Positions 14,212-34,722 are shown, counted from the stretch's first letter. The stretch is 37,616 bases of DNA from Candidatus Thorarchaeota archaeon (GCA_016839605.1 JAEOTX010000106.1:1-37616); one strand, 5' to 3'. Translations and numbers: made by a program. The notes: generated by a model from the sequence alone, not told the origin.

Positions 14212-14903
14212 TGTGGAGCATCTGCCGAGCTCCCTTTGTAGGCCAGGCCCAGTTTCTTCTTTTCCCCAGTGACCATGTATACAGCCCTCTCAGCTATGGC
14301 AAAAGCTTGGTCTGCCGCACGCTCACAATATCTTCCAACAATGACATAAAACATCGCCATGGTCGTGATGTCTTTTCTTTTTCTCAGGTATTCGATAATT
14401 TCCTCAAACATCTCTGAGGTTTCCCGATCGCTGTCAGCTTCCATCTTTTCAAGATCATCGAGGTGTGAGAGGTCATTGTCCAGAACTCCTTTCATTGCTA
14501 TTTCAAGCGTCTTTTTCGCCAACTTAGCTACATAGGGCAAGGACTGCAGTTCCTTGAAATGCTCCAAGTCTTTACATAGCTTGACGATATGTGCTATCTT
14601 GTAGGCGTATCTGCCGACACGGTGAAGATGATGTGCAACCTGCAGATAGGTCGCGAGTCTTCGGAGGTCAGATGCAACTGGCTGTCTTCTTGCAATGGTC
14701 TCGAATACCTTGGCTTCGACCTTCATGGACAACTCCTCTATCTGCTGGGAATTCCTTTTGACCTCTGCTGCCACTTCCTGATCCAGAAGCTCGAATGCCT
14801 TCATAGCTTTCATGAAAGCTCCAGATGAGAGTGCATGGAGTTCCTTCAATCGATTGCCAATTTCTTCAATGTGAATCTCTAACTGTGTTCGCATAGCGCT
14901 CAC
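14208..14903 (-). CDS. phoU: Phosphate signalling protein PhoU
   Basis: RRQPVASDLR and ERAADQA motifs; last gene of the pst operon. Confidence 0.9.
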   Translation of the reverse strand: MSAMRTQLEIHIEEIGNRLKELHALSSGAFMKAMKAFELLDQEVAAEVKRNSQQIEELSMKVEAKVFETIARRQPVASDLRRLATYLQVAHHLHRVGRYAYKIAHIVKLCKDLEHFKELQSLPYVAKLAKKTLEIAMKGVLDNDLSHLDDLEKMEADSDRETSEMFEEIIEYLRKRKDITTMAMFYVIVGRYCERAADQAFAIAERAVYMVTGEKKKLGLAYKGSSADAPH

Positions 14904-21168: not shown

Positions 21169-22002
21169 ATGGCCGGAAAGAAGCTCAATGATTTAGATGG
21201 GAAGGAATGGGTCAAGAGCACTAAATCCTGGTTCGTGGTCAATCCACGTGCAAGAACCAAAAACCAAATGACGCATCCCGCAAAGTTTCCTGAGGAGCTA
21301 GTCACTCGTTTTGTGGAGTATTTCACCAAAGCAGGCGGGTGGGTCATTGACCCTTTTGCTGGCGTAGCTAGTACTATAGTGGCATGCAAGACATTGAATC
21401 GCAGCTCGGTTGGAGTTGAGCTCAATCCTGAGTTTATCGACATAGGGCAAACAGAATTGAATGAAGCAACTGGATCAGGTTCTCACCACATCTTAGCGGG
21501 TGACTCATTAGATATCGCCGCTGTCTTGGAAACGCAGTTTGGAGAGGATGTTCCCAAGTTTGATTACTTGATCACTTCGCCACCATACTATAACATGCTC
21601 AGGAAATCCAGAGGTGGAAATGAAACCGTTCACAAAGAGAGAGGAGAGAAAGGTCTCAAGCAGTACTATAGCGGGTCATCATCAGACCTGGGAAACATAG
21701 AGTACTATGAAGAATATCTAGAGTGTGTTGGTCTAGTTCTCGATGCAGTCTTCCCTTACATGACTAATGGTGCTTATCTGACAATAGTAGTTCAAAACAT
21801 GAGAGATGAAGGAAACATCTTTCGACCTATCGCCTGGGACTTAGCGAGTCGCTTCTCTGAGACCTATGAATTGCGTCAGGAACAGGTCTGGTGTCAGGAC
21901 AACAAAAGATTAGGGTGCTGGGGTTTTCCTTCGACCTATGTTTCGAATGTACACCATCATTACTGCTTGATTCTCCAGAAACAGGTCAAGAGCGACGACT
22001 GA
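21169..22002 (+). CDS. Orphan amino-methyltransferase (N4-C/N6-A DNA methylase family, SPPY)
   Basis: HPAKFP, motif I DPFAGVAS preceding motif IV TSPPY; no restriction endonuclease adjacent. Confidence 0.85.
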   Translation: MAGKKLNDLDGKEWVKSTKSWFVVNPRARTKNQMTHPAKFPEELVTRFVEYFTKAGGWVIDPFAGVASTIVACKTLNRSSVGVELNPEFIDIGQTELNEATGSGSHHILAGDSLDIAAVLETQFGEDVPKFDYLITSPPYYNMLRKSRGGNETVHKERGEKGLKQYYSGSSSDLGNIEYYEEYLECVGLVLDAVFPYMTNGAYLTIVVQNMRDEGNIFRPIAWDLASRFSETYELRQEQVWCQDNKRLGCWGFPSTYVSNVHHHYCLILQKQVKSDD

Positions 22003-22072
22003 CGACTACCGAACAGGGAAGAATACCAGTTCTTGCAATAGGGTTCGAGAGCTAATGGTGCCAATCTGAGTC

Positions 22073-23701
22073 TTACCAATGAAAGTCGAATTCATCGCTA
22101 GCAAACATCTCAATCGTTTCATAGGCAGAGCAAGCTTCAATCAGACCTTGCTCAGAATCATATGGAGAGGTGGCAGTAGCAACAGCCATCACTCCAATGG
22201 TATACTCACTTGGGAGGGCTGATTCGAGTGAGTTCATGTCTTCTCCTTCTGGAGCCCATTCAAGATTTATGAAGACGTATAATTTGCCGCCTGCAGGAAG
22301 CCATGGAACAGAGAGTTTGTTGTCCCCGAAAGTAGTCTCCATTTCATCCATGAAGTTGTACATCCTTGGCCAACCATCTGAACTGCACCAGTCTAGGAAT
22401 AGAAATACAGGTCTGGGCCAGCGTCCTGATTCCTTAAACCAGACGAAAAGCTGTCTTATTCTGAAGTCCTCCGGTATATCAAGGTCCATTTCCAGTTCAC
22501 ATATTTCTATGGGCAAGTTGTTCTCCAACAGAAAATTGAACCTGATCCTGTCTGAGAAGAATCGAGATTTGGAGATCGATGATTTTAGACTTACGCTAGT
22601 CAATACGACCTGAATACTCTGCATTTCCTCAGTATTCCCAATCTCATCAGCGCTATAGAATGAAATATTCCGAACTCCATCTTGACCTGAAAGGTAGAAT
22701 GGCTCACAGAATTCTAACCAAGATTCTTCATTGATTCTGTACATGGTTGTGATATCCGATGCCAATTCACCTGAAGATATGAGGGTGAACTCTGTCATAG
22801 AGGTGACATATATTGTCCCGTTCACATCCAAATAATGCGTCCCTATTTCTAGTGTAGTCATTGGCGATGCTATTTCTAGTGTATTCATTGGTGACGATTC
22901 AGGTTCTATGACCTCAACCGAGAAATTCCACACAGCACTCCAATCACAGGGATTTCCAGTGTAGTCGAAAGCCTGACACTTCCAGAAGTATGTGCCCGTT
23001 TCAAGAGATGTCAAAGTCAAGTTCATCTTGGGAGCAAATACAGTTTCTTCATGGGTAAGATTCTCAGGAGCGAGAATACTGGAATTAAAGACCTGTACAA
23101 CTGTGTACTGTGTTCCACTGATGTCTGAAGGCACTTCCCATTGGAGAGTAACGGGTCCCTGAGTGAAGGTTTCGCCGTTCAAAGGTGTAATCAATGAAGG
23201 TTGCCCATCATATAATGTGTCTATCTGAAATGTCCAGAGCGCACTGAAATCCCCAAGTTCATCGTCCTCATCATCCCCATCTTCATCGAGTGTCCTCACT
23301 GCCCAGGAATAGTCACCATCAGTTTCACCTGGAATGCCTGATGCGGAGTTTAGCCAGAGCTGAAACGATGTTCCAGTCACTCGGATATATATCGGCACAG
23401 TCCGGGTGGGTGTCATGAGCATCAATTCGTACCCCTGTGCATCATCAACAGCGTTCCAATCAAACAAAACTGGTTCTGTATCAATCGTACTCTGACCAAA
23501 GATCTCTCCGTCAACTGGTGAAATCAACTGTGGTGCTGGAAGGTCCGCTAGAGTCAGTGGTATGGATGACTTTGTTGGGACTAGCGCACTTGATTCATTT
23601 TCTCTAAATTCGGCTGCATGTCCTGTCGAAATAGCGGTGCTTAGTACTAAGAGAAACGCACATGAGACTATCAGGCATATCAACCGGTTTCGGTTATGCA
23701 G
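22073..23701 (-). CDS. Secreted/surface protein with two FN3/Ig-like modules and further beta-rich domains (probable CTG start at 23701)
   Basis: Signal peptide; repeated P-x-LIxPx(D/N)GE...W...Y-x-W...WxF modules; FYSADEIGNTEE motif. Confidence 0.75.
   Translation of the reverse strand: MHNRNRLICLIVSCAFLLVLSTAISTGHAAEFRENESSALVPTKSSIPLTLADLPAPQLISPVDGEIFGQSTIDTEPVLFDWNAVDDAQGYELMLMTPTRTVPIYIRVTGTSFQLWLNSASGIPGETDGDYSWAVRTLDEDGDDEDDELGDFSALWTFQIDTLYDGQPSLITPLNGETFTQGPVTLQWEVPSDISGTQYTVVQVFNSSILAPENLTHEETVFAPKMNLTLTSLETGTYFWKCQAFDYTGNPCDWSAVWNFSVEVIEPESSPMNTLEIASPMTTLEIGTHYLDVNGTIYVTSMTEFTLISSGELASDITTMYRINEESWLEFCEPFYLSGQDGVRNISFYSADEIGNTEEMQSIQVVLTSVSLKSSISKSRFFSDRIRFNFLLENNLPIEICELEMDLDIPEDFRIRQLFVWFKESGRWPRPVFLFLDWCSSDGWPRMYNFMDEMETTFGDNKLSVPWLPAGGKLYVFINLEWAPEGEDMNSLESALPSEYTIGVMAVATATSPYDSEQGLIEACSAYETIEMFASDEFDFHW
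22843..22896. repeat. 27-nt tandem duplication within the surface protein (SPMNTLEIA/SPMTTLEIG)
   Basis: CTATTTCTAGTGTAGTCATTGGCGATG vs CTATTTCTAGTGTATTCATTGGTGACG, 24/27 identical. Confidence 0.8.
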
Positions 23702-27317: not shown

Positions 27318-30290
27318 TCATCTGATTCCGTTTAGCACATCGGTGAGTACTTTGGGTATTTCATGAAGAGATCCCAGCGTAATGACCTCTCCACGAGTCA
27401 GCTCAGCCATCTCCTCTGCCCTCTCAGTATTTGCCATCTTCTCATTGAGGGCAACGATGAACCGAGACTGAAGATCGTTGAATCTTTCCAGCTGCGGTTC
27501 TAAAACTGAGATGTCCTCAACGAAGGCGTCAGTGAGCACCATCAGGAGTCTCTTTTCGGATTCAGTCATCATCTCTAGCTGGTCTGCGCCCCAACGTAGA
27601 GCTGCGTCAGCGCTAGTACCTCTCCTTCCTCTGAGGTCAAGTATTTGATCTGCTACCTCATCGATATCCCGCTTTTCCTGAAATCCCTTCACCGCGTGCG
27701 TGCTCTCTTCAAAGAATGCAATAGCTATCTCTTCAGGTAAGAGATTAGCCAGCAGCATCACGACAGCAATGGCACACATTGCGAGCTTTTCTCCACTCAT
27801 TGAACCACTTATGTCAAGAAGAAAGCATGCGGCAACTCTTCCACGTACCGTATCCCAGACTACTAAGTCGTCACTTGTCAGTAGGTTTAGGTCTTTTCCA
27901 GACATCAAAATGCTCTCTATCGAACTCTCAATATCTATCTGGTCTATGTCATCTCCATCTCGAAATGGTCGGACCTTAGTGCTAGGAGCAAGACCCTTCT
28001 CTCCTGACCCGATTTTCCCTGTGGGCCAACTCATCGCGACCTCAATAAGTGCCTGCTTAGCTAGTTCCTTGACCTTTTCCTTAGCATCTTTCGGGAGGTC
28101 TTTGCGATGATTGAACCATTGGAGAACTAAGTTCTCCCCCGGACCCCGAGTCATTGAACCGAATGTACGTTCGATTGATTTCGCACTGCCGTCTTTTGTC
28201 ACTTTCTCAATTTTATCAGCAATATCTTTAGCTGAGTGTTCGTCAATTGGAGGCGGAGAACCGGTAATGGACCTAATTGCTTCCATCAAGGCAGTTGGGT
28301 CAATGCTCATCAAGGGATCTGGTCTGTCAGGCATTCGCCAGGAATCAGTTCTTTTCAATGTTTTAATTCTCTCAATGTGGTCTTCAAGCTCTCTTGTTAG
28401 GTCTCGTTTCCTGGACTTGTGAATCTTTTCTGCGAGCTTGCTTAGACCTTCTTCTCCGACTGAACCAAATGCAGGATGGTCAGACATGAACTCCTCTATT
28501 GCATCAATTTCGCCATGAGTTTTAGCAGTCTTCAGAGTACTTGTGAGATCTGCGTGGGCCATTGCAGCAAGGGCTTCTGTATGTCCTGCTTTGAGAGCAG
28601 ACCGAGTTAGTTCCTTGAATAGTTCTTCTTTTCGTCCCCTCATGCTACTGCCTTTAGTAGTGGTGAATCCCTTCCCCATTCTAAGTGAAGTCCCACCGAA
28701 TCCAAGTCTCTTCATCATGCTGCCAAGGGTATCTGCAGTGCCAGCACCCGCGTCAACGAGATGCTTGAGTGTTTCATAGGTGTCTCCTATGCGCTCGAGT
28801 ATTCTCTCATCTGAGAATCCTTTGTCAAGACCTGTTTTCATCACGTCAGTCGGAGAGAGGCCGATTTCACTGTCCATGAACGAATCAAGAAGATCAAGAA
28901 AAGCAGCTTCTCCCTTTGTTTCTTCGATGGCTTTTACAGCTGCACTACTAGAGAACTTCTCGAATTTGCCAGCATGAGAATGGCTGGACTCCCTGAAACT
29001 CTCAGCGTACTCTTTCATCCTCTCAGCTAGCTCTGCAAAACTTCGAGTCGAGCCGCCTTCTTTTTTCATGGATTTCAATGTGTGTTCAAAAGCCTTCTCT
29101 GCTAATTCAGCCCACTCTGGAGATTCCACAGCACTCAGAGCTATGTCATCTAGTGTGGGAGTTTTTCCTTCCTTTCGAACATGTTCTTCATAGGCGTCAA
29201 AAAGCTCCTCACGATGTTTTGTGCCAAACTTCTCATCCATTTTCGAAGCAGTTCGAAAAGCTCGTCCTAAATCCTCTAGGCTATCTTCAAAGACTCGTTC
29301 TTTATCAAACTCAGGCACTTCCTCCAGCATATCTGAAACTTCGGAGATTTCCCAAAGCTTGTCGAGTTTCTTCACTAGACTCTTGGTTTCTTTATCGAGC
29401 TCTGTTTTCGGAAAACCTGCATCTTTGAGATATTTCAGACTCCGAGCAGCGGTCTCCATATCCCCTGCCAAAATCTTCTCCATTTCATCTTTGAATGATT
29501 CTAGCTCCATTGCATACTCTGTAGCAAGCTTTTCCCATGGTGAGCTTGTCCTGGATAGAACTTCCTCGCCCCAACCAAGTTCTGCCGCGGGCTTGATATC
29601 TTCTGGAGGCAGACTATCGATCTCGCTTAGGACTTCATCCCTCAAGAACCGTTCCAGTTTCTCTTTGTCTGAGAGTCCCATTCTGAGTGCAGTCTCATCT
29701 CCTCCCCTTGATGTCAGTAGACTCCTGAATGCCTCCATTTCTGCAGTTTCCGCACTGGATAGCGTTTCAAGGAAATCTAGTAGCTCAGACATCGCGTCAA
29801 GCTCATGTTCAATCATAGACTCTACATCATCGAGATCAACGCTGCTCTCTCCTAAGACAGATAGTTCTGACATGATTTGGTCAAGAACTGATGGTGGCCC
29901 CCTATCGACCTCTTCCATTTCATCATCCTTATCGGCTACCTCGCCATCAGGTGCTTTGAGAGGTGCTTCCTCTGGTTTTGTCTTCTTCTTTTTCTTCTTC
30001 TTCTTTTTCTTCCTCCTTTCAGGGAATAGAATTTGGAAGGCGATGTCTCTAGCATGAGATTGGTCTAGGATAGGAGTTGTGAAGACTGCAGCTTGAATAT
30101 AGTCCTCGGGTATCAGATCCCTCTTCCTATGGAATCGTGCTGTGAGAAGTCTCGGGATTGCTATAGCTTGTCTAGTACTTGGAGTTCCCCCTAGCAGTTT
30201 CTCATCGATCGCACGCATTCTATGGATAAACTCGGCAGAGAACGTTATTGGATTCCATGCCTCTCCAAGTCCCCATATGTCATGCGCCAT
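27318..30290 (-). CDS. Large vWA-domain protein (990 aa), MoxR partner
   Basis: C-terminal MIDAS DISGSMS...GT...LTD; pre-vWA motif IDIESSIE; long helical middle; K10 tract. Confidence 0.88.
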   Translation of the reverse strand: MAHDIWGLGEAWNPITFSAEFIHRMRAIDEKLLGGTPSTRQAIAIPRLLTARFHRKRDLIPEDYIQAAVFTTPILDQSHARDIAFQILFPERRKKKKKKKKKKTKPEEAPLKAPDGEVADKDDEMEEVDRGPPSVLDQIMSELSVLGESSVDLDDVESMIEHELDAMSELLDFLETLSSAETAEMEAFRSLLTSRGGDETALRMGLSDKEKLERFLRDEVLSEIDSLPPEDIKPAAELGWGEEVLSRTSSPWEKLATEYAMELESFKDEMEKILAGDMETAARSLKYLKDAGFPKTELDKETKSLVKKLDKLWEISEVSDMLEEVPEFDKERVFEDSLEDLGRAFRTASKMDEKFGTKHREELFDAYEEHVRKEGKTPTLDDIALSAVESPEWAELAEKAFEHTLKSMKKEGGSTRSFAELAERMKEYAESFRESSHSHAGKFEKFSSSAAVKAIEETKGEAAFLDLLDSFMDSEIGLSPTDVMKTGLDKGFSDERILERIGDTYETLKHLVDAGAGTADTLGSMMKRLGFGGTSLRMGKGFTTTKGSSMRGRKEELFKELTRSALKAGHTEALAAMAHADLTSTLKTAKTHGEIDAIEEFMSDHPAFGSVGEEGLSKLAEKIHKSRKRDLTRELEDHIERIKTLKRTDSWRMPDRPDPLMSIDPTALMEAIRSITGSPPPIDEHSAKDIADKIEKVTKDGSAKSIERTFGSMTRGPGENLVLQWFNHRKDLPKDAKEKVKELAKQALIEVAMSWPTGKIGSGEKGLAPSTKVRPFRDGDDIDQIDIESSIESILMSGKDLNLLTSDDLVVWDTVRGRVAACFLLDISGSMSGEKLAMCAIAVVMLLANLLPEEIAIAFFEESTHAVKGFQEKRDIDEVADQILDLRGRRGTSADAALRWGADQLEMMTESEKRLLMVLTDAFVEDISVLEPQLERFNDLQSRFIVALNEKMANTERAEEMAELTRGEVITLGSLHEIPKVLTDVLNGIR
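29982..30011 (-). repeat. (AAG AAA AAG AAG AAG)x2 encoding ten lysines
   Basis: Exact 15-nt tandem duplication. Confidence 0.85.
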
Positions 30291-31246
30291 TATGATGCAC
30301 CCAGAGTGTCCCGCACAATTCGTGCAACAACTTGTTCAGGTTTCTTTCCAGGCTTGAATTGACATGAGTCTGGAAGAATCAAATTTGCGACCTCTGCAAT
30401 GATTTTGTTGTCTAGTTTAGATTTAGTTCGTGCTGCTCTTTCTGATGCGAGTCTAGCCATCCCAATACTGGAACGCAAGCTTGGGGGCGACTCAACCTGT
30501 GCATCTCCACGAAATTGCTCCAGCAATTCCAATATCTTCTCATAAGCGATAGCTGGGATTTTGTACTCTGGACAATTCGCTTCCACTATCTTCCGCTCAA
30601 GAGACCTCGGTGGATAATCAAGATGAATCCAGACCTTTATCCTATCCTTAATGGCTTCAGGCAACTTTCTTGTACCTCTCATCTCAGCTGGGTTCATAGC
30701 ACTCACTACGTAGAAGTCCTCATCAACTTTGATCCAACTCCTGAGTTGGGGAATGTAAAGACGTCCTTCTTCCATCGCGTCAAGCATTGAGTTAAGGACA
30801 TATTCGTCACCACGATTTATCTCATTGGCGAGGAATAATCCTCCTTGAAGTGCCGCGAGAGTAAATGGTCCTGGCACATATGACTCAGCAGCGAATCCAA
30901 ACTTGAAAACCAAAGTAGGGTCAAAACTCCCAATCAAGGTGGCAGGCCTGACCAAATCAGAGAATGTCACCCAATAGAACTCACGTCCAAGGTCATACGC
31001 GAACTTGCGACAGAGGGCTGTCTTCCCGCAACCCACAGGTCCCACGAGTCCAACATACAAGCCTGCTGCATGTGCATCAAGCATAGCTTCGTACGCCTCT
31101 TTATACTGGCCCTCAAGAACCAGCTTGACATCCTCTCTAATGTCTTCAACGCGTTTCATCTCAAGCAGCTTGGCAAAGTCCTTCTCTGCGCCTGCTTCTT
31201 TCCTTGTTGTTTTCTCTGTACTTTTTTGTTTACTCACTTTATTCAT
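30290..31246 (-). CDS. MoxR-family AAA+ ATPase
   Basis: Walker A GPVGCGKT, Walker B LFLANEINR, AMNPAE, LPEAIKDR, LDYP and SLRSSI motifs; ATG at 31246 follows AGGAG and overlaps the upstream stop. Confidence 0.9.
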   Translation of the reverse strand: MNKVSKQKSTEKTTRKEAGAEKDFAKLLEMKRVEDIREDVKLVLEGQYKEAYEAMLDAHAAGLYVGLVGPVGCGKTALCRKFAYDLGREFYWVTFSDLVRPATLIGSFDPTLVFKFGFAAESYVPGPFTLAALQGGLFLANEINRGDEYVLNSMLDAMEEGRLYIPQLRSWIKVDEDFYVVSAMNPAEMRGTRKLPEAIKDRIKVWIHLDYPPRSLERKIVEANCPEYKIPAIAYEKILELLEQFRGDAQVESPPSLRSSIGMARLASERAARTKSKLDNKIIAEVANLILPDSCQFKPGKKPEQVVARIVRDTLGAS

Positions 31247-31835
31247 CTCCTGAACTGCTCTCAAAATACAATTCTGCTGTAGTTGGTGATACTTCTTCAG
31301 GGAGTTCGAATCCCATCTCATTCACCTTGGATGAGAAGATATCATACTCAGATTTGTCCAAAACGGATCTATTACCAAAACCCAACGCTTCTAACACCAA
31401 TTTGCCATAGAATGTCTGCTTAATCTCTGAAAGATCGTACTTTCTTCTTCGATACAGTACTTTTGATGATTGGAGTTCTCGAGCACGAGCGGCAACAACC
31501 ACCTTGTAAAGAGGTACCCATCTGTCAAGCTTTGCTAGTTTCTCTGCTTTGAATTTGTAGTGTTCCTTAGGTGAATTCTTTAGCATAACGCCCAGTGAAC
31601 GCATTAGTCCTCCAAAGAACTCGCCCTTTGCTTTCTTCTTGTCTTTCTGGCTTACGAAATCGATTGCATCTACTATGACTGAATTGATTTGCTCATCAGA
31701 GGCATCAAAGAACTTCTTTAGCTCCTCTACTTCTTTCGGGAATAAGGAGGAAGCACGATTCACTACCTTTAGCTCTATCTGCTTCTTAGTTGAGAGAGCT
31801 TCGCTGAGGCTACCAAATGCGTCATTGTAGCTCAT
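31239..31835 (-). CDS. Hypothetical protein (198 aa), operon member
   Basis: ATGA overlap with the SMC gene, GAGGAGG RBS, 8-nt overlap with the MoxR gene. Confidence 0.8.
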   Translation of the reverse strand: MSYNDAFGSLSEALSTKKQIELKVVNRASSLFPKEVEELKKFFDASDEQINSVIVDAIDFVSQKDKKKAKGEFFGGLMRSLGVMLKNSPKEHYKFKAEKLAKLDRWVPLYKVVVAARARELQSSKVLYRRRKYDLSEIKQTFYGKLVLEALGFGNRSVLDKSEYDIFSSKVNEMGFELPEEVSPTTAELYFESSSGDE

Positions 31836-34408
31836 GATGATCCCTCCTCCTCTCTTCCAAGATGAATCTCTAATTCGTCTTCATCTAGTTCCTCGCCATC
31901 GAGTCTTAATTGCACTGTCTGATCTGCCTCTTCAGGATCAGACATAGTGACCTCATCTTCCGACTCATCTGAAGTTTCGAGCTTCTTCTTCATGGTTGCC
32001 CTGCTTAACATACCATCTCTATACACAGTGATCTCATTCGCTGGCGAGAACTGCATTGCGTCTGATTGATGAGTCACTAGGAGTGTTTGATTACTAATGG
32101 AGATGTCCTCGAAACTTGATATAACTCGCTTCCGATTCTCACTATCCGCCCCATACGTAGGTTCATCAGCGAAAAGGAAGGGGACACCATTGAGAAAATC
32201 TCCAATTGCTAATCGGTAGGAGAGTCCCAACAGAAGCTGCATTCCTCCTCCTTGATATACAGTCACAGGGACTGTTTCATCCCAACCTGCCGGAGCTATC
32301 TCCATCGAGTAATCTTCAGGACGAATCTTTAGGCGCTCAACCTCTGTTTCAGGGAACATCTGTTTATGGAATGCAAGTGATGACTCAGACAAATTCTTTG
32401 AAGCATTCTCTCGAATGCTTTCTTGTACTGCCTTAAAGCCATCAGCAAGCTCATTATACTTCTCAGTGTGCTTCTTTGCTTGGACTAATCTGTCTAGTTT
32501 TATCGATGTCTCCGTTATGTCCGCATCTAGAGTCATGGACCTATCTTTGAGATCTTCCTCTCGACTTGCAAGCTCAGATATTCTAGAGGAACTCTGGTCA
32601 AGTTTGACTCGAAATTCAGTCTGCATCTCACGAACGAACTGATCGATTTCACGTAGCTCTGATGGGAACTCTTTGCACTCCTTCTTGACAATAAGTGCTA
32701 ATCTCTCGCCGATTGATTGCATAAGTTCTGACTTGGATTTTGATTTCACTAGCTTGTCTAACTTTCCAAGAAGTTTAACCAGCTCTGCTTTGGAGCCATC
32801 TAGCTTAGCTATAGCTTGACCATGGTCTTTTCCTAACTTAGATTCCCTCTTTGCTAGGTCTTGAATATCATCCAAGGATTTTTGGTTTTCATCAACTTGT
32901 GTTTTAGCTTCCGACTCCATTCGAATCAAAGATTCGAGGCTTGATTGAATTTCATCATTCTCAACCTGCGCACTCTTCAGTAATTCTTTTGCTTCTGATA
33001 CCTCTTCAACTGTAGCCTTAGCTTCTGAAAGCGCTCTCTTCTTCTCTATTTGTACAACTCTCTTCTCTAGTCTTGAAATTGCTGTACTAGTTTTCTTCTC
33101 TTTCTTATCTAGTTCAGATAGACTGGTCTCAAGTTCTTTCAGTTCCTGAGCCACCTTCGCAGGATCCAACTCTGCTCCACAGTATTCGCAGTTGTGCTCA
33201 CCTACAACACTCTTCCTGCGTGATGCTCGTCCTTCAAGATCTCCCCTTTCGTGCCGTAGCTTCTTCAAATCGTTCTCTTGGACCTTTAGCTCATTCTTTG
33301 CATCCTTCATTTCCTTCTCGATGTCTTCAAGTAATTCGGCAGACTTAGCTTGCTCGAAGAGTTCATCTAGTCCGATGGATAGTGCCTTAGTATAGGTTTG
33401 AAGCTGGCCCACCAGATTGCCAAGCTTTTGTTGCTTATCTGCAACCTTCTTGGAAGCTCTTCCTCCTTTGGTACGGGTTGCTCTCAAGTCAGTCTTACTA
33501 ACGCTAAATGCCTCTTTCGCGTCATCTAGATCCTTAACCCATGGTGTGATGTCACCCTTGTAGCGTTTGGCCTTAAGCTGTACTTTGATGTCATCAAGTG
33601 ATGTCTTAGTCACCAAGATGTCCTTTTCAGCACGGTCCCAATCATCTCGTACTTTGTCTAGCTTTGCGAAGGTCCTAGCTGTAGTATCTGCTTCTGCCAA
33701 ACTCTTCTTCAATGCCTTTTGCTCTGCAGAGACCTTCTTCTTTTCTTCAGATACTTTCTGAATTTCATCTCCCAACTGCTTCTGCTCTTGCTCCAGCTTC
33801 TCAAGAAGTGCCTCAAGAATGGGCATCTGACTCAGGTCTTTCTCCAGTGTTCTCTTGCGGTCCTTGAATGCTTGACTGAGAGCTTCTGCAGCTGTAGCGC
33901 CAAGAACAATATCCAATGAGCTAGAACCTCGCAGAATATCAGGCATTCCACCTTGTCGTGCACTAACTGTTACTTCAAACAGTCTGCGGGATATACCCGT
34001 TATTTCGCGGACCTTCAAAGCAAGTTGTTCTTCAGTATTTCCGAAATCACTTGAGAGGATGTACTCCTCTCCTTCTTCCTCCTCAGATCCTATTCGCTTC
34101 AAAGTGAAATGACTCGAACTGACCCTGTTATTCTTCTTGGAGAGTTTGTGAACTCTAAGCAAGCGATAGTGGTTCTCGTCTCGACCCTTAATGATGAGCT
34201 CTACACCTGCGTCTTTCTCTCCACGTCGGGTGTAGGATGACTTAGTCTTAAACCCCCTGACATGGCCAAAGAGAGCGTATTCAATAGCATAGAGTATTGT
34301 GCTCTTCCCTGCGTTGTTGACGCCTTCGATGAGATTCACACCTGGCCTGAAATTCAAGGTCTGGTCATCAAATCGTCTGAAATTGCGGAGGCGAATACTC
34401 TCAATCAA
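31832..34408 (-). CDS. Rad50/SbcC-like SMC ATPase with zinc hook
   Basis: IRLRNFRRF, Walker A GVNNAGKST, Q-loop RQG, central CEYC hook (33179-33190), signature YQGGG, Walker B FADEPT, H-loop VTH, acidic tail. Confidence 0.9.
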   Translation of the reverse strand: MIESIRLRNFRRFDDQTLNFRPGVNLIEGVNNAGKSTILYAIEYALFGHVRGFKTKSSYTRRGEKDAGVELIIKGRDENHYRLLRVHKLSKKNNRVSSSHFTLKRIGSEEEEGEEYILSSDFGNTEEQLALKVREITGISRRLFEVTVSARQGGMPDILRGSSSLDIVLGATAAEALSQAFKDRKRTLEKDLSQMPILEALLEKLEQEQKQLGDEIQKVSEEKKKVSAEQKALKKSLAEADTTARTFAKLDKVRDDWDRAEKDILVTKTSLDDIKVQLKAKRYKGDITPWVKDLDDAKEAFSVSKTDLRATRTKGGRASKKVADKQQKLGNLVGQLQTYTKALSIGLDELFEQAKSAELLEDIEKEMKDAKNELKVQENDLKKLRHERGDLEGRASRRKSVVGEHNCEYCGAELDPAKVAQELKELETSLSELDKKEKKTSTAISRLEKRVVQIEKKRALSEAKATVEEVSEAKELLKSAQVENDEIQSSLESLIRMESEAKTQVDENQKSLDDIQDLAKRESKLGKDHGQAIAKLDGSKAELVKLLGKLDKLVKSKSKSELMQSIGERLALIVKKECKEFPSELREIDQFVREMQTEFRVKLDQSSSRISELASREEDLKDRSMTLDADITETSIKLDRLVQAKKHTEKYNELADGFKAVQESIRENASKNLSESSLAFHKQMFPETEVERLKIRPEDYSMEIAPAGWDETVPVTVYQGGGMQLLLGLSYRLAIGDFLNGVPFLFADEPTYGADSENRKRVISSFEDISISNQTLLVTHQSDAMQFSPANEITVYRDGMLSRATMKKKLETSDESEDEVTMSDPEEADQTVQLRLDGEELDEDELEIHLGREEEGSS

Positions 34409-34676
34409 GATTATCGACCTCCAAAGCTAGCCTACCCTCGAACACCTCCTTGATCCGTGCCTCAAGTTGGTCTCTAGAAGCTTTGTTAAGCCCAAAAGAC
34501 TTGGTCATATTTGCGTCATCATCAAGTAGGTACTGGACAAAGTCAAGCACTTGAGACGCATTCTGTATGTCCTTTATTGTTAAATCGAATCCACTCAGCA
34601 CGTCAATTACTGAAGAAGCCTTCTTAGGAGTGGTTTCAGTTCCCGCCCCATTTACCTCTGAGTCATTCCCTGACAA
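34401..34676 (-). CDS. Small acidic helical protein (91 aa), first gene of the SMC-MoxR-vWA operon
   Basis: TTG start after GGAGGG; stop overlaps the SMC start (TTGATTGA). Confidence 0.75.
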   Translation of the reverse strand: MSGNDSEVNGAGTETTPKKASSVIDVLSGFDLTIKDIQNASQVLDFVQYLLDDDANMTKSFGLNKASRDQLEARIKEVFEGRLALEVDNLD

Positions 34677-34690
34677 GGAATATGCCCTCC

Positions 34691-34722
34691 AGCTGAAATT
34701 TCAGCTTACCCACCTTATATTT
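34691..34722 (-). promoter_or_regulatory. Perfect 16-bp palindrome and TATA-like element heading the SMC operon
   Basis: AGCTGAAATTTCAGCT (34691-34706), between AAATATAA (minus strand, 34715-34722) and the RBS. Confidence 0.6.

Follow-up and report, generated by a model that had tools for sequence, protein, structure and literature searches.

ATPases of the Rad50/SMC type and remodellers made of a MoxR-class AAA+ protein and a von Willebrand factor A (vWA) protein are each well studied. On a contig of a Candidatus Thorarchaeota archaeon (GCA_016839605.1, JAEOTX010000106.1:1-37616; the whole stretch of 37,616 nucleotides is called the window) genes for both lie in one operon of five genes, g1 to g5, and the question arises of what a Rad50-like ATPase has to do with an AAA+/vWA motor. 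We found that this cassette is a real and rare five-gene operon in which an extra Rad50-like zinc-hook ATPase is joined to an AAA+/vWA motor and not to a nuclease. The reading that we favour, with a probability of roughly two in five, is that g1 and g2 form a DNA-binding complex which would be loaded, reset or removed by the AAA+-vWA motor (g4 and g5) by way of g3, and that the whole would have an optional role at DNA ends alongside Mre11-Rad50. No report of a Rad50/SbcC-like ATPase joined in an operon to a MoxR-vWA pair was found in the searchable literature, the coverage of which leaves out one survey of ABC ATPases. PADLOC returned only generic SMC matches and no system model. These results support the supposition in the first-pass annotation of this DNA that the architecture is an undescribed one.

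The five-gene operon and its Rad50-like ATPase

The cassette consists of five open reading frames (ORFs) on the minus strand between positions 27318 and 34676 of the window; all features given below for the cassette and its promoter lie on this strand. Each start overlaps the preceding stop, the junctions being TTGATTGA for g1/g2, ATGA for g2/g3, ATGAATAA for g3/g4 and TAATG for g4/g5. The ORFs and the four junctions were recovered exactly as first described. All five genes are translationally coupled, which counts for reading them as a single machine. g1 (34401..34676) starts with TTG and encodes an acidic helical protein of 91 amino acids (aa), g2 (31832..34408) an 858-aa Rad50/SbcC-like ABC ATPase with a long coiled coil, g3 (31239..31835) a 198-aa protein that matches no family, g4 (30290..31246) a MoxR-class AAA+ ATPase (AAA_5) and g5 (27318..30290) a 990-aa helical protein with a vWA domain at its C-terminus. 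For g4 the longest ORF, of 343 aa, starts at 31321 and overlaps g3 by 83 nucleotides (nt), but the start of the gene is probably further inside: the ATG at 31246, within ATGAATAA, is favoured because the resulting 318 aa fit the 298-312 aa of the homologs. Family assignments were concordant across Pfam, NCBIfam and PADLOC. g1 and g3 gave no family match in these three collections, g1 also none in PHROGs, where the cassette proteins found generic SbcC and AAA matches only. Neither the family scans nor the predicted models pointed to an enzyme-like domain, be it of a nuclease, a protease or another kind, in g1, g3 or the helical N-region of g5. The absence of Mre11, HerA and NurA that had been claimed was borne out, since no homolog of any of them is encoded in the window and neither the cassette nor the window has a Metallophos gene.

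g2 encodes an ATPase of the SMC/Rad50 type (Pfam: AAA_23, 1.7e-22, and SMC_N) whose best solved relatives are archaeal Rad50 heads (3aux, 2.6e-33). The full set of ABC head motifs is present. In the family alignment Walker A reads GVNNAGKST (residues 29-37, 34298..34324), with NNAGK[ST]T as the family form and G29, N31, N32, A33, G34, K35 and T37 invariant, and Walker B reads FADEPT (D748-E749 at 32162..32167), with D748, E749, P750 and T751 invariant. Q-loop and H-loop are invariant across the family, as are G720-G722 of a deviant ABC signature, YQGGGM (32240..32257; family consensus [YQE]GGG[HM]). The middle of the coiled coil carries a zinc-hook-like CEYC (C407-C410, 33179..33190). C407, E408, C410 and G411 do not vary among the archaeal and bacterial forms, and the Pfam model Rad50_zn_hook gives no match. 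An acidic C-terminal tail was found in the Thorarchaeota forms only.

Is g2 then simply the Rad50 of this organism? Against the Rad50 equivalog models of NCBIfam it scored 66-98 bits at cut-offs of 700-1087 (individual scores of 97.7, 88 and 84 bits vs cut-offs of 847, 1000 and 700). A head-domain tree from a quick search, in which five canonical Asgard Rad50s including one from the same genome were placed, gave a clade of 13 g2 sequences (Shimodaira-Hasegawa-like approximate likelihood-ratio test 92, not starred) apart from the canonical ones. A 3.08-Mb, 80%-complete metagenome-assembled genome (MAG) of Thorarchaeota includes the window as its contig C28, and the closest g2 ortholog is likewise labelled Candidatus Thorarchaeota. 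Elsewhere in the genome, contig C22 carries in tandem herA (586 aa), a gene for a Metallophos protein (463 aa, Mre11) and one for a 692-aa Rad50-like ATPase, contig C205 carries herA-nurA and contig C61 encodes a 1122-aa SMC protein with hinge. Because herA-mre11-rad50, herA-nurA and the SMC gene lie on other contigs, g2 is an extra Rad50-like paralog of the genome, in which g1, g2 and g3 are single-copy. A separate canonical mre11-rad50 locus thus exists, g2 is not the sole Rad50, and the earlier idea of an additional paralog holds.

With Rad50-Mre11 and SbcCD the cassette shares the bipartite ABC head, the long antiparallel coiled coil and the central CxxC of g2, and the small gene g1 precedes g2 in the position of mre11 or sbcD. 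Unlike these systems, it has no phosphoesterase, mre11 being found with another rad50 on C22, and g2 has the signature QGGG[HM] instead of S-GG and belongs to a separate clade that coexists with canonical Rad50. g1 was found immediately upstream of g2 in every locus. Alignment of archaeal and bacterial forms gave the conserved core F.F.QYLLDD.ENLT.T.NL, and L50, D52, T58, L63, L71, R74 and E77 are invariant across both groups. The idea that g1 is a free-standing version of the Rad50-binding module of Mre11 found no support at the sequence level, where hhalign against six Asgard Mre11 C-termini returned a probability of 0.2%.

The deviant signature of g2 and the lack of a nucleic-acid enzyme in the cassette would also fit a g2 that works not as a DNA enzyme but as a scaffold with a long coiled coil or as a cytoskeletal tether, in the manner of arcadin-4 or of archaea-specific SMC-related proteins (ASRP), and that is assembled or disassembled by the motor. 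Indeed g2 matches ASRP (1.7e-21) and arcadin-4 Rkd4 (2e-17) in NCBIfam, both far under the cut-offs. However, all ATPase motifs and the hook of g2 are invariant, Rad50 heads are its nearest solved relatives, the informative neighbourhoods described below hold DNA-end genes (mre11-rad50, herA, PNK3P and ligase), and no cytoskeletal gene such as crenactin or another arcadin is found nearby. A scaffold of this kind is very unlikely in our view.

The AAA+/vWA motor and the candidate adaptor g3

g4 matches AAA_5 (6.3e-19) and AAA_3 (7.3e-15) in Pfam and GvpN (1.7e-19) in NCBIfam and carries the MoxR-class motifs Walker A, catalytic Glu and Arg finger. Walker A, identified by motif reading and alignment, is GPVGCGKT (31019..31042). 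Walker B, identified by alignment, is FLANE (30821..30826) with Asn for Asp, and this ANE form is conserved in all aligned AAA+ proteins of the cassette type and of a paralogous Asgard type described below. g4 is the best-conserved protein of the cassette (62-64% identity between Thorarchaeota and bacterial forms), and in the tree the cassette-type g4 proteins are set off from the paralogous Asgard AAA+ proteins as a fully supported clade whose branches are short. By sequence, g4 is related to NorQ (2.7e-10) and CbbQ (1e-7). A special kinship with midasin was considered and dropped, since the best E-value against the PDB (2.5e-27) is the sum of six to seven weak domain matches, the best single midasin domain giving 30.7 bits vs 49.9 bits for MoxR 2r44 in one stretch. 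The bpMoxR model was matched with an E-value of 0.035 and 13.6 bits at a cut-off of 27, and the cassette differs from the bpMoxR-type ternary conflict systems in that a beta-propeller, peptidase or iSTAND third component is not present.

In an AlphaFold2 model of g5 (predicted local distance difference test, pLDDT, 77) residues 1-755 are all-helical with disordered charged inserts and are followed by the vWA domain (residues ~770-990, 27321..27983; VWA_2, 7.1e-6). Its metal ion-dependent adhesion site (MIDAS) is intact, with D826-x-S828-x-S830, T892 and D921 in invariant columns, and the best Foldseek matches of the domain were the MIDAS domain of Rea1 (6qt8, E 1.7e-6) and NorD in the NorQD complex (9qhe_G, 3e-6). 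At the other end of the protein a four-helix domain (residues 14-90, 30021..30251) resembles an AAA+ lid: the first ~60 residues of g5 align with the lid of g4 (hhalign 88.4%, E 2.8e-6, 41 columns) and include a PSxR motif that is similar to sensor 2. F17, R26, P37, S38, R40 and Q77 are invariant in this domain. In chelatase D-subunits an AAA-derived N-domain and an acidic linker precede the vWA domain; g5, in which the lid match over those 41 columns is followed by a charged disordered insert, may have a comparable layout. The insert (residues 93-153) is of low confidence and begins with a poly-lysine run, RRKKKKKKKKKKKTK (residues 93-105, 29976..30014), in which 11 lysines are encoded by AAG/AAA repeats and after which an acidic stretch follows; it accounts for most of the extra length of the Thorarchaeota protein (990 aa vs ~850 aa in homologs).

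In the order of a ~300-aa AAA_5 ATPase gene and a gene for a long protein that ends in a vWA domain with intact MIDAS, g4-g5 are like NorQ-NorD and CbbQ-CbbO. In NorQD it is the vWA protein that links the AAA+ ring to the remodelled client, and MoxR-vWA pairs remodel their targets through the vWA domain (PMC13036017). Unlike in NorQ-NorD, CbbQ-CbbO and Rea1, the presumed client in the cassette is an SMC/Rad50-like ATPase and not a metalloenzyme, Rubisco or the pre-ribosome, and compared with NorQ-NorD and CbbQ-CbbO the cassette adds the presumed adaptor g3, the ANE Walker B of g4 and the lid-like N-domain of g5.

Motors such as NorQD, CbbQO, CoxDE and the chelatases are also the models for a maturation chaperone, in which g4-g5, together with g3, would be required a single time, for the assembly or metallation of g2 (the Zn hook might be formed in this way, or the g1-g2 complex), and g1-g2 would then act alone. 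Target remodelling and metal insertion are what MoxR-vWA pairs typically do (PMC13036017, PMC9976466). NorD is among the closest fold matches of the vWA domain, and Cys/His metal-site motifs are present in both types of partner, that is the CxxC hook of g2 and an H-x-C...C-x-H motif in the ~780-aa partner of the paralogous pairs. For such a task, however, a dedicated conserved adaptor and a scaffold of 850-990 aa in 1:1 operonic coupling are not obviously needed, and no metal-handling motif was seen in g3 or the N-region of g5. Canonical Rad50 hooks assemble without such a chaperone, which also counts against this explanation, and we hold it to be distinctly unlikely.

A paralogous g4-g5 pair is encoded in 168 of the 201 sampled Asgard genomes, with identities of ~40% (g4) and 25-35% (g5), and its AAA+ sequences evolve much faster than cassette-type g4. 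The second copy in the genome studied here (G000) is on contig C100 (L054); other loci with the paralogous pair are L049, L050, L052 and L060, in the last of which the pair directly follows a cluster of genes for a 424-aa protein, Rad50, HerA and a 387-aa protein. In several families the pair is followed by a gene for a ~780-aa protein with the conserved H-x-C...C-x-H motif, one member of which gave a sub-threshold SWIM match. By tblastn this SWIM-like partner was found neither in G000 nor beside the paralogous pair of genome G134, so the three-gene form of the module is not universal. The module resembles the cassette in its g4-g5 homologs and in that its third protein shares the C-domain of g3, and differs in that it has no g1, no g2 and no short g3.

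The shared domain was the clue to g3. The AlphaFold2 model (pLDDT 87, predicted template modelling score 0.73) has an N-terminal helical bundle (~1-123) and a small alpha/beta C-domain (~124-195) that ends in LPEEVSPTTAELYF, and the C-terminal LP..VEPTT.E.FF is conserved between archaea and bacteria. By hhalign, in which the C-terminal domain spans residues ~113-195 (31251..31499), the last ~70 residues of g3 and the C-terminus of the ~780-aa partner are homologous (96.4%, E 1.2e-9); a search with the g3 profile also gave weak matches to the C-termini of proteins of 763-797 aa. The two proteins are found with AAA+-vWA pairs of one kind and have nothing but this domain in common; it would therefore be a docking domain, and g3 is likely the adaptor of the cassette. 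A predicted complex of g3, the g5 vWA domain and Mg scored 0.59 (runs of 0.63, 0.18 and 0.59; best control 0.00), with a contact agreement of at least 76% and a partner pLDDT of at least 79. The mark that it passed was reached in calibration by 58 of 80 solved complexes and by 2 of 110 mismatched pairs, and passes at or below 0.60 were few, namely 7 of the 80 solved complexes and both mismatches. The prediction lends weak support to a g3-vWA contact. Foldseek searches of the PDB gave no match for the g3 fold (best E 0.49), and other structural candidates were rejected as too weak: DUF61 SSO0941 (Z 5.2, 61 residues, root-mean-square deviation 3.8), the UvsW N-domain (Z 4.8) and MutS domain I (Z 3.9), the first of them in a wide VIA-align search and the others also by VIA-align, and a MutS_I-like match in the ESM Atlas (template modelling score 0.47 by target, 68 residues). 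Feature searches of the ESM Atlas with g3 and with g5 residues 150-760 gave nothing usable.

We propose that the five genes encode one self-contained accessory machine with two halves. In the first, g2 would dimerise through its heads and its hook, with g1 as a small obligate partner, and most likely binds DNA, be it ends or tethered duplexes, in an ATP-dependent manner like its relatives. The second half would be a remodeller of the NorQ-NorD/CbbQ-CbbO type, in which g4 forms the MoxR-class AAA+ ring, the long helical part of g5 the adaptor and the C-terminal MIDAS/vWA domain of g5 the grip on the client. g3 would link the two, its C-domain docked on the AAA+-vWA pair and its helical N-half holding g1-g2, and ATP hydrolysis by g4 would remodel g1-g2 so that the complex is loaded on DNA, reset or pulled off. 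The role of the machine is most likely an optional one in the handling of DNA ends or double-strand breaks beside Mre11-Rad50, not suicide-type defence.

Distribution, loss and genomic neighbourhoods

The cassette was surveyed by a pattern scan with one genome per species, in which loci with a full-length g2 relative were considered. The order g1-g2-g3-g4-g5 was found in 24 of 24 related loci, with genes missing only at contig ends, and the Rad50-like and the MoxR-vWA halves are thus co-located in the same order in every related locus examined. Public proteins and contigs with g2 homologs likewise gave the five genes in this order. Archaeal carriers are Thorarchaeota and many Promethearchaeota, among them the complete genome of Ca. 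Lokiarchaeum ossiferum (CP104013.1). The first-pass annotation had proposed an Asgard system. The cassette is not Asgard-specific, since it was also found in Myxococcota, that is in Sandaracinus amylolyticus (CP070225.1), Sandaracinaceae, Kofleriaceae and Myxococcales, and furthermore in a Gemmatales MAG and in MAGs labelled Alphaproteobacteria or Rickettsiales. In two loci, L044 (G186:C68) and L059 (G028:C284), cassette-type g4-g5 are present with no g2 or g3 detectable upstream; the g4 of L044 is truncated (220 aa) and has a radical SAM gene in front of it. Both loci may be cassettes that have decayed or recombined.

With g3 as marker, a stand-alone ortholog was found in ~20 of 400 Asgard genomes, among them only 1 of the 15 other genomes of the same genus, and a search of 1.84 billion representative proteins with the g3 profile yielded 64 clusters at E <= 1e-10. 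In four genomes of the genus that lack the cassette, the gap between corA and pfk is 600-735 nt vs ~8 kb in the window. One of these sites keeps a scar of the loss (L149, G386:C1:341450-342450): the cassette promoter is retained together with ~26 codons from the start of g1, which are fused, where the two genes share a short DVL.G. similarity, to the final seven codons of g5, and a remnant ORF of ~30 codons is left between corA and the DinB-family gene. Therefore, the cassette was ancestral at this site in G386 and was then deleted there. The cassette is rare and dispensable.

The genes that flank the cassette differ between loci, and most of them have metabolic or housekeeping functions. No PADLOC family recurred in the 86 ORFs taken from the flanks of eight further loci, where matches were confined to single members, and one locus adjoins hipBA; the neighbourhoods do not look like a defence island. 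In one subclade of Promethearchaeota (L064/L087, L074, L075 and L092) the cassette follows genes for a large SF1 helicase, Mre11 (524 aa) and Rad50 (917 aa) on the same strand, and in an independent case (L065) it is divergent from an operon of a 440-aa gene, herA, mre11 and rad50. The label 'nuclease-less' given to the system at first thus fits the cassette itself, in which no nuclease domain was found, but not its surroundings, as several Asgard copies are found directly beside mre11-rad50. Another Promethearchaeota locus (L067:7775-13183, JGI 3300033144) has g1-like and g2-family genes without g3-g5, which marks g1-g2 as one unit; downstream are genes for an LRR protein, the polynucleotide kinase/phosphatase PNK3P and, further on, DNA ligase. 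Two to three juxtapositions with DNA-end enzymes suggest an association above chance expectation, although the events are few and the kin are not independent.

The same distribution has to be weighed against a role in defence against mobile elements. Here g1-g2 would have the part that LmuB plays in Lamassu or JetC in Wadjet and would detect ends or replication intermediates of foreign DNA, the signal would be transduced or amplified by the MoxR-vWA half, and killing or cutting would fall to a host nuclease, for example a neighbouring Mre11, or to an activity that was not recognised. As in Lamassu, Wadjet and MksBEF(G), an orphan SMC/Rad50-like ATPase and small partners are found in a compact accessory operon, and the best PADLOC match of g2 is LmuB (PDLC03859, 1.7e-26, residues 2-527), a match in which generic SMC/Rad50 similarity and true membership are not separable. 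Rarity and patchiness, the loss by deletion in a sister genome, variable genomic neighbours, the hipBA genes beside one locus and the presence in Asgard archaea as well as in several bacterial phyla, with a cross-domain identity of 62-64% for g4, would all fit. However, no effector domain was found in the cassette, and PADLOC gave no matches beyond noise for g1, g3 and g5. Unlike Lamassu, it has no LmuA-type effector and no detectable LmuC; unlike in Wadjet and MksBEF, there is only an N-terminal JetC match in g2 (6.9e-9) and nothing for JetA, JetB or JetD. Lamassu and Wadjet in turn lack a MoxR-vWA pair, whereas the cassette lacks a kleisin/KITE and a defence-island context. Flanking genes are mostly metabolic or housekeeping ones, with defence-like families as single members among the 86 ORFs, a search of 72,556 plasmids and 50,697 phage records gave no cassette-type g4, and the very slow evolution of g4 is unlike that of the fast-evolving components of conflict systems. 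The analogy to Lamassu and Wadjet drawn in the first-pass annotation therefore gains little, given that no effector, no recurrent defence neighbourhood and no plasmid or phage copies were found, and a defence role is possible but doubtful.

Several observations weigh against a motor-controlled g1-g2 complex that acts beside Mre11-Rad50. The only complex test was weak, with one of three runs at 0.18, and g1 has no profile similarity to the Mre11 C-termini of the six Asgard sequences compared by hhalign. The g2 signature lacks the usual Ser (QGGG[HM]) and g4 has Asn for Asp in Walker B, so that, judged from these residues, either ATPase could be slow or regulatory. Adjacency to mre11-rad50 was seen in only about 2-3 independent lineages, the copy in the window is not adjoined by repair genes, its neighbours being corA and the DinB-family gene, and the patchy distribution and the sharing across domains would fit a defence system as well.

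A broader claim, which we make only tentatively and regard as unlikely to hold in full, is that the cassette represents a new class of SMC/Rad50-type machine, whose DNA-bound state would be set or cleared by an AAA+/MIDAS extraction motor, which would be an optional partner of Mre11-Rad50 in break repair and which horizontal transfer would have brought to both Asgard archaea and myxobacteria-like bacteria. Should the Rad50-like complex be what the motor acts on, an SMC-type DNA machine would be controlled in a new way, and there would be a prokaryotic precedent for unloading an SMC-like complex at the expense of ATP. For the AAA+-vWA modules that are widespread in Asgard archaea, the cassette also provides a first tractable client, and the cassette can be put to the test since carriers are in culture (Ca. 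Lokiarchaeum ossiferum and Sandaracinus amylolyticus). Asgard archaea are the archaea most closely related to eukaryotes, and the recurrence of the cassette beside mre11-rad50 in their genomes is relevant to the organisation of break repair there. Its presence in both Asgard archaea and Myxococcota adds to the gene exchanges documented between the two. New in this analysis are the test of g2 paralogy, the deletion scar in the sister genome, the homology of the g3 C-domain, the variant with g1-g2 only and the negative results for plasmids, phages and defence islands.

Promoter region and flanks of the cassette in the window

The cassette had been described as sitting behind its own promoter and a 16-bp palindrome. 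The putative promoter region (34686..34720) does contain a TATA-like element, ATATAAGG (34713-34720, read from the sequence), and a GGAGG (34686-34690) 9 nt before the TTG start of g1, and the perfect 16-bp palindrome AGCTGAAATTTCAGCT (34691-34706) lies between the two. As evidence for an operator, the palindrome is weak: the window contains two perfect 16-bp palindromes vs 0.54 expected by shuffling, a count that is not statistically exceptional, and AGCTGAAATTTCAGCT is only partly kept in the orthologous promoters of the same-genus genomes G152 and G386. A conserved operator was therefore rejected. The other perfect palindrome of the window, AGCTTTCATGAAAGCT (14805-14820), has the same AGCT ends as that of the cassette promoter.

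The cassette is flanked in the window by corA and a gene for a DAO oxidoreductase on one side and by the DinB-family gene and a phosphofructokinase gene (PFK) on the other. About 4 kb from the cassette, at 21169-23683, a 277-aa ORF, whose match to the N6_N4 DNA methylase model is limited to the C-terminal part of that model, and a 536-aa ORF without Pfam match are convergent, and this pair may be the remnant of a restriction-modification system.

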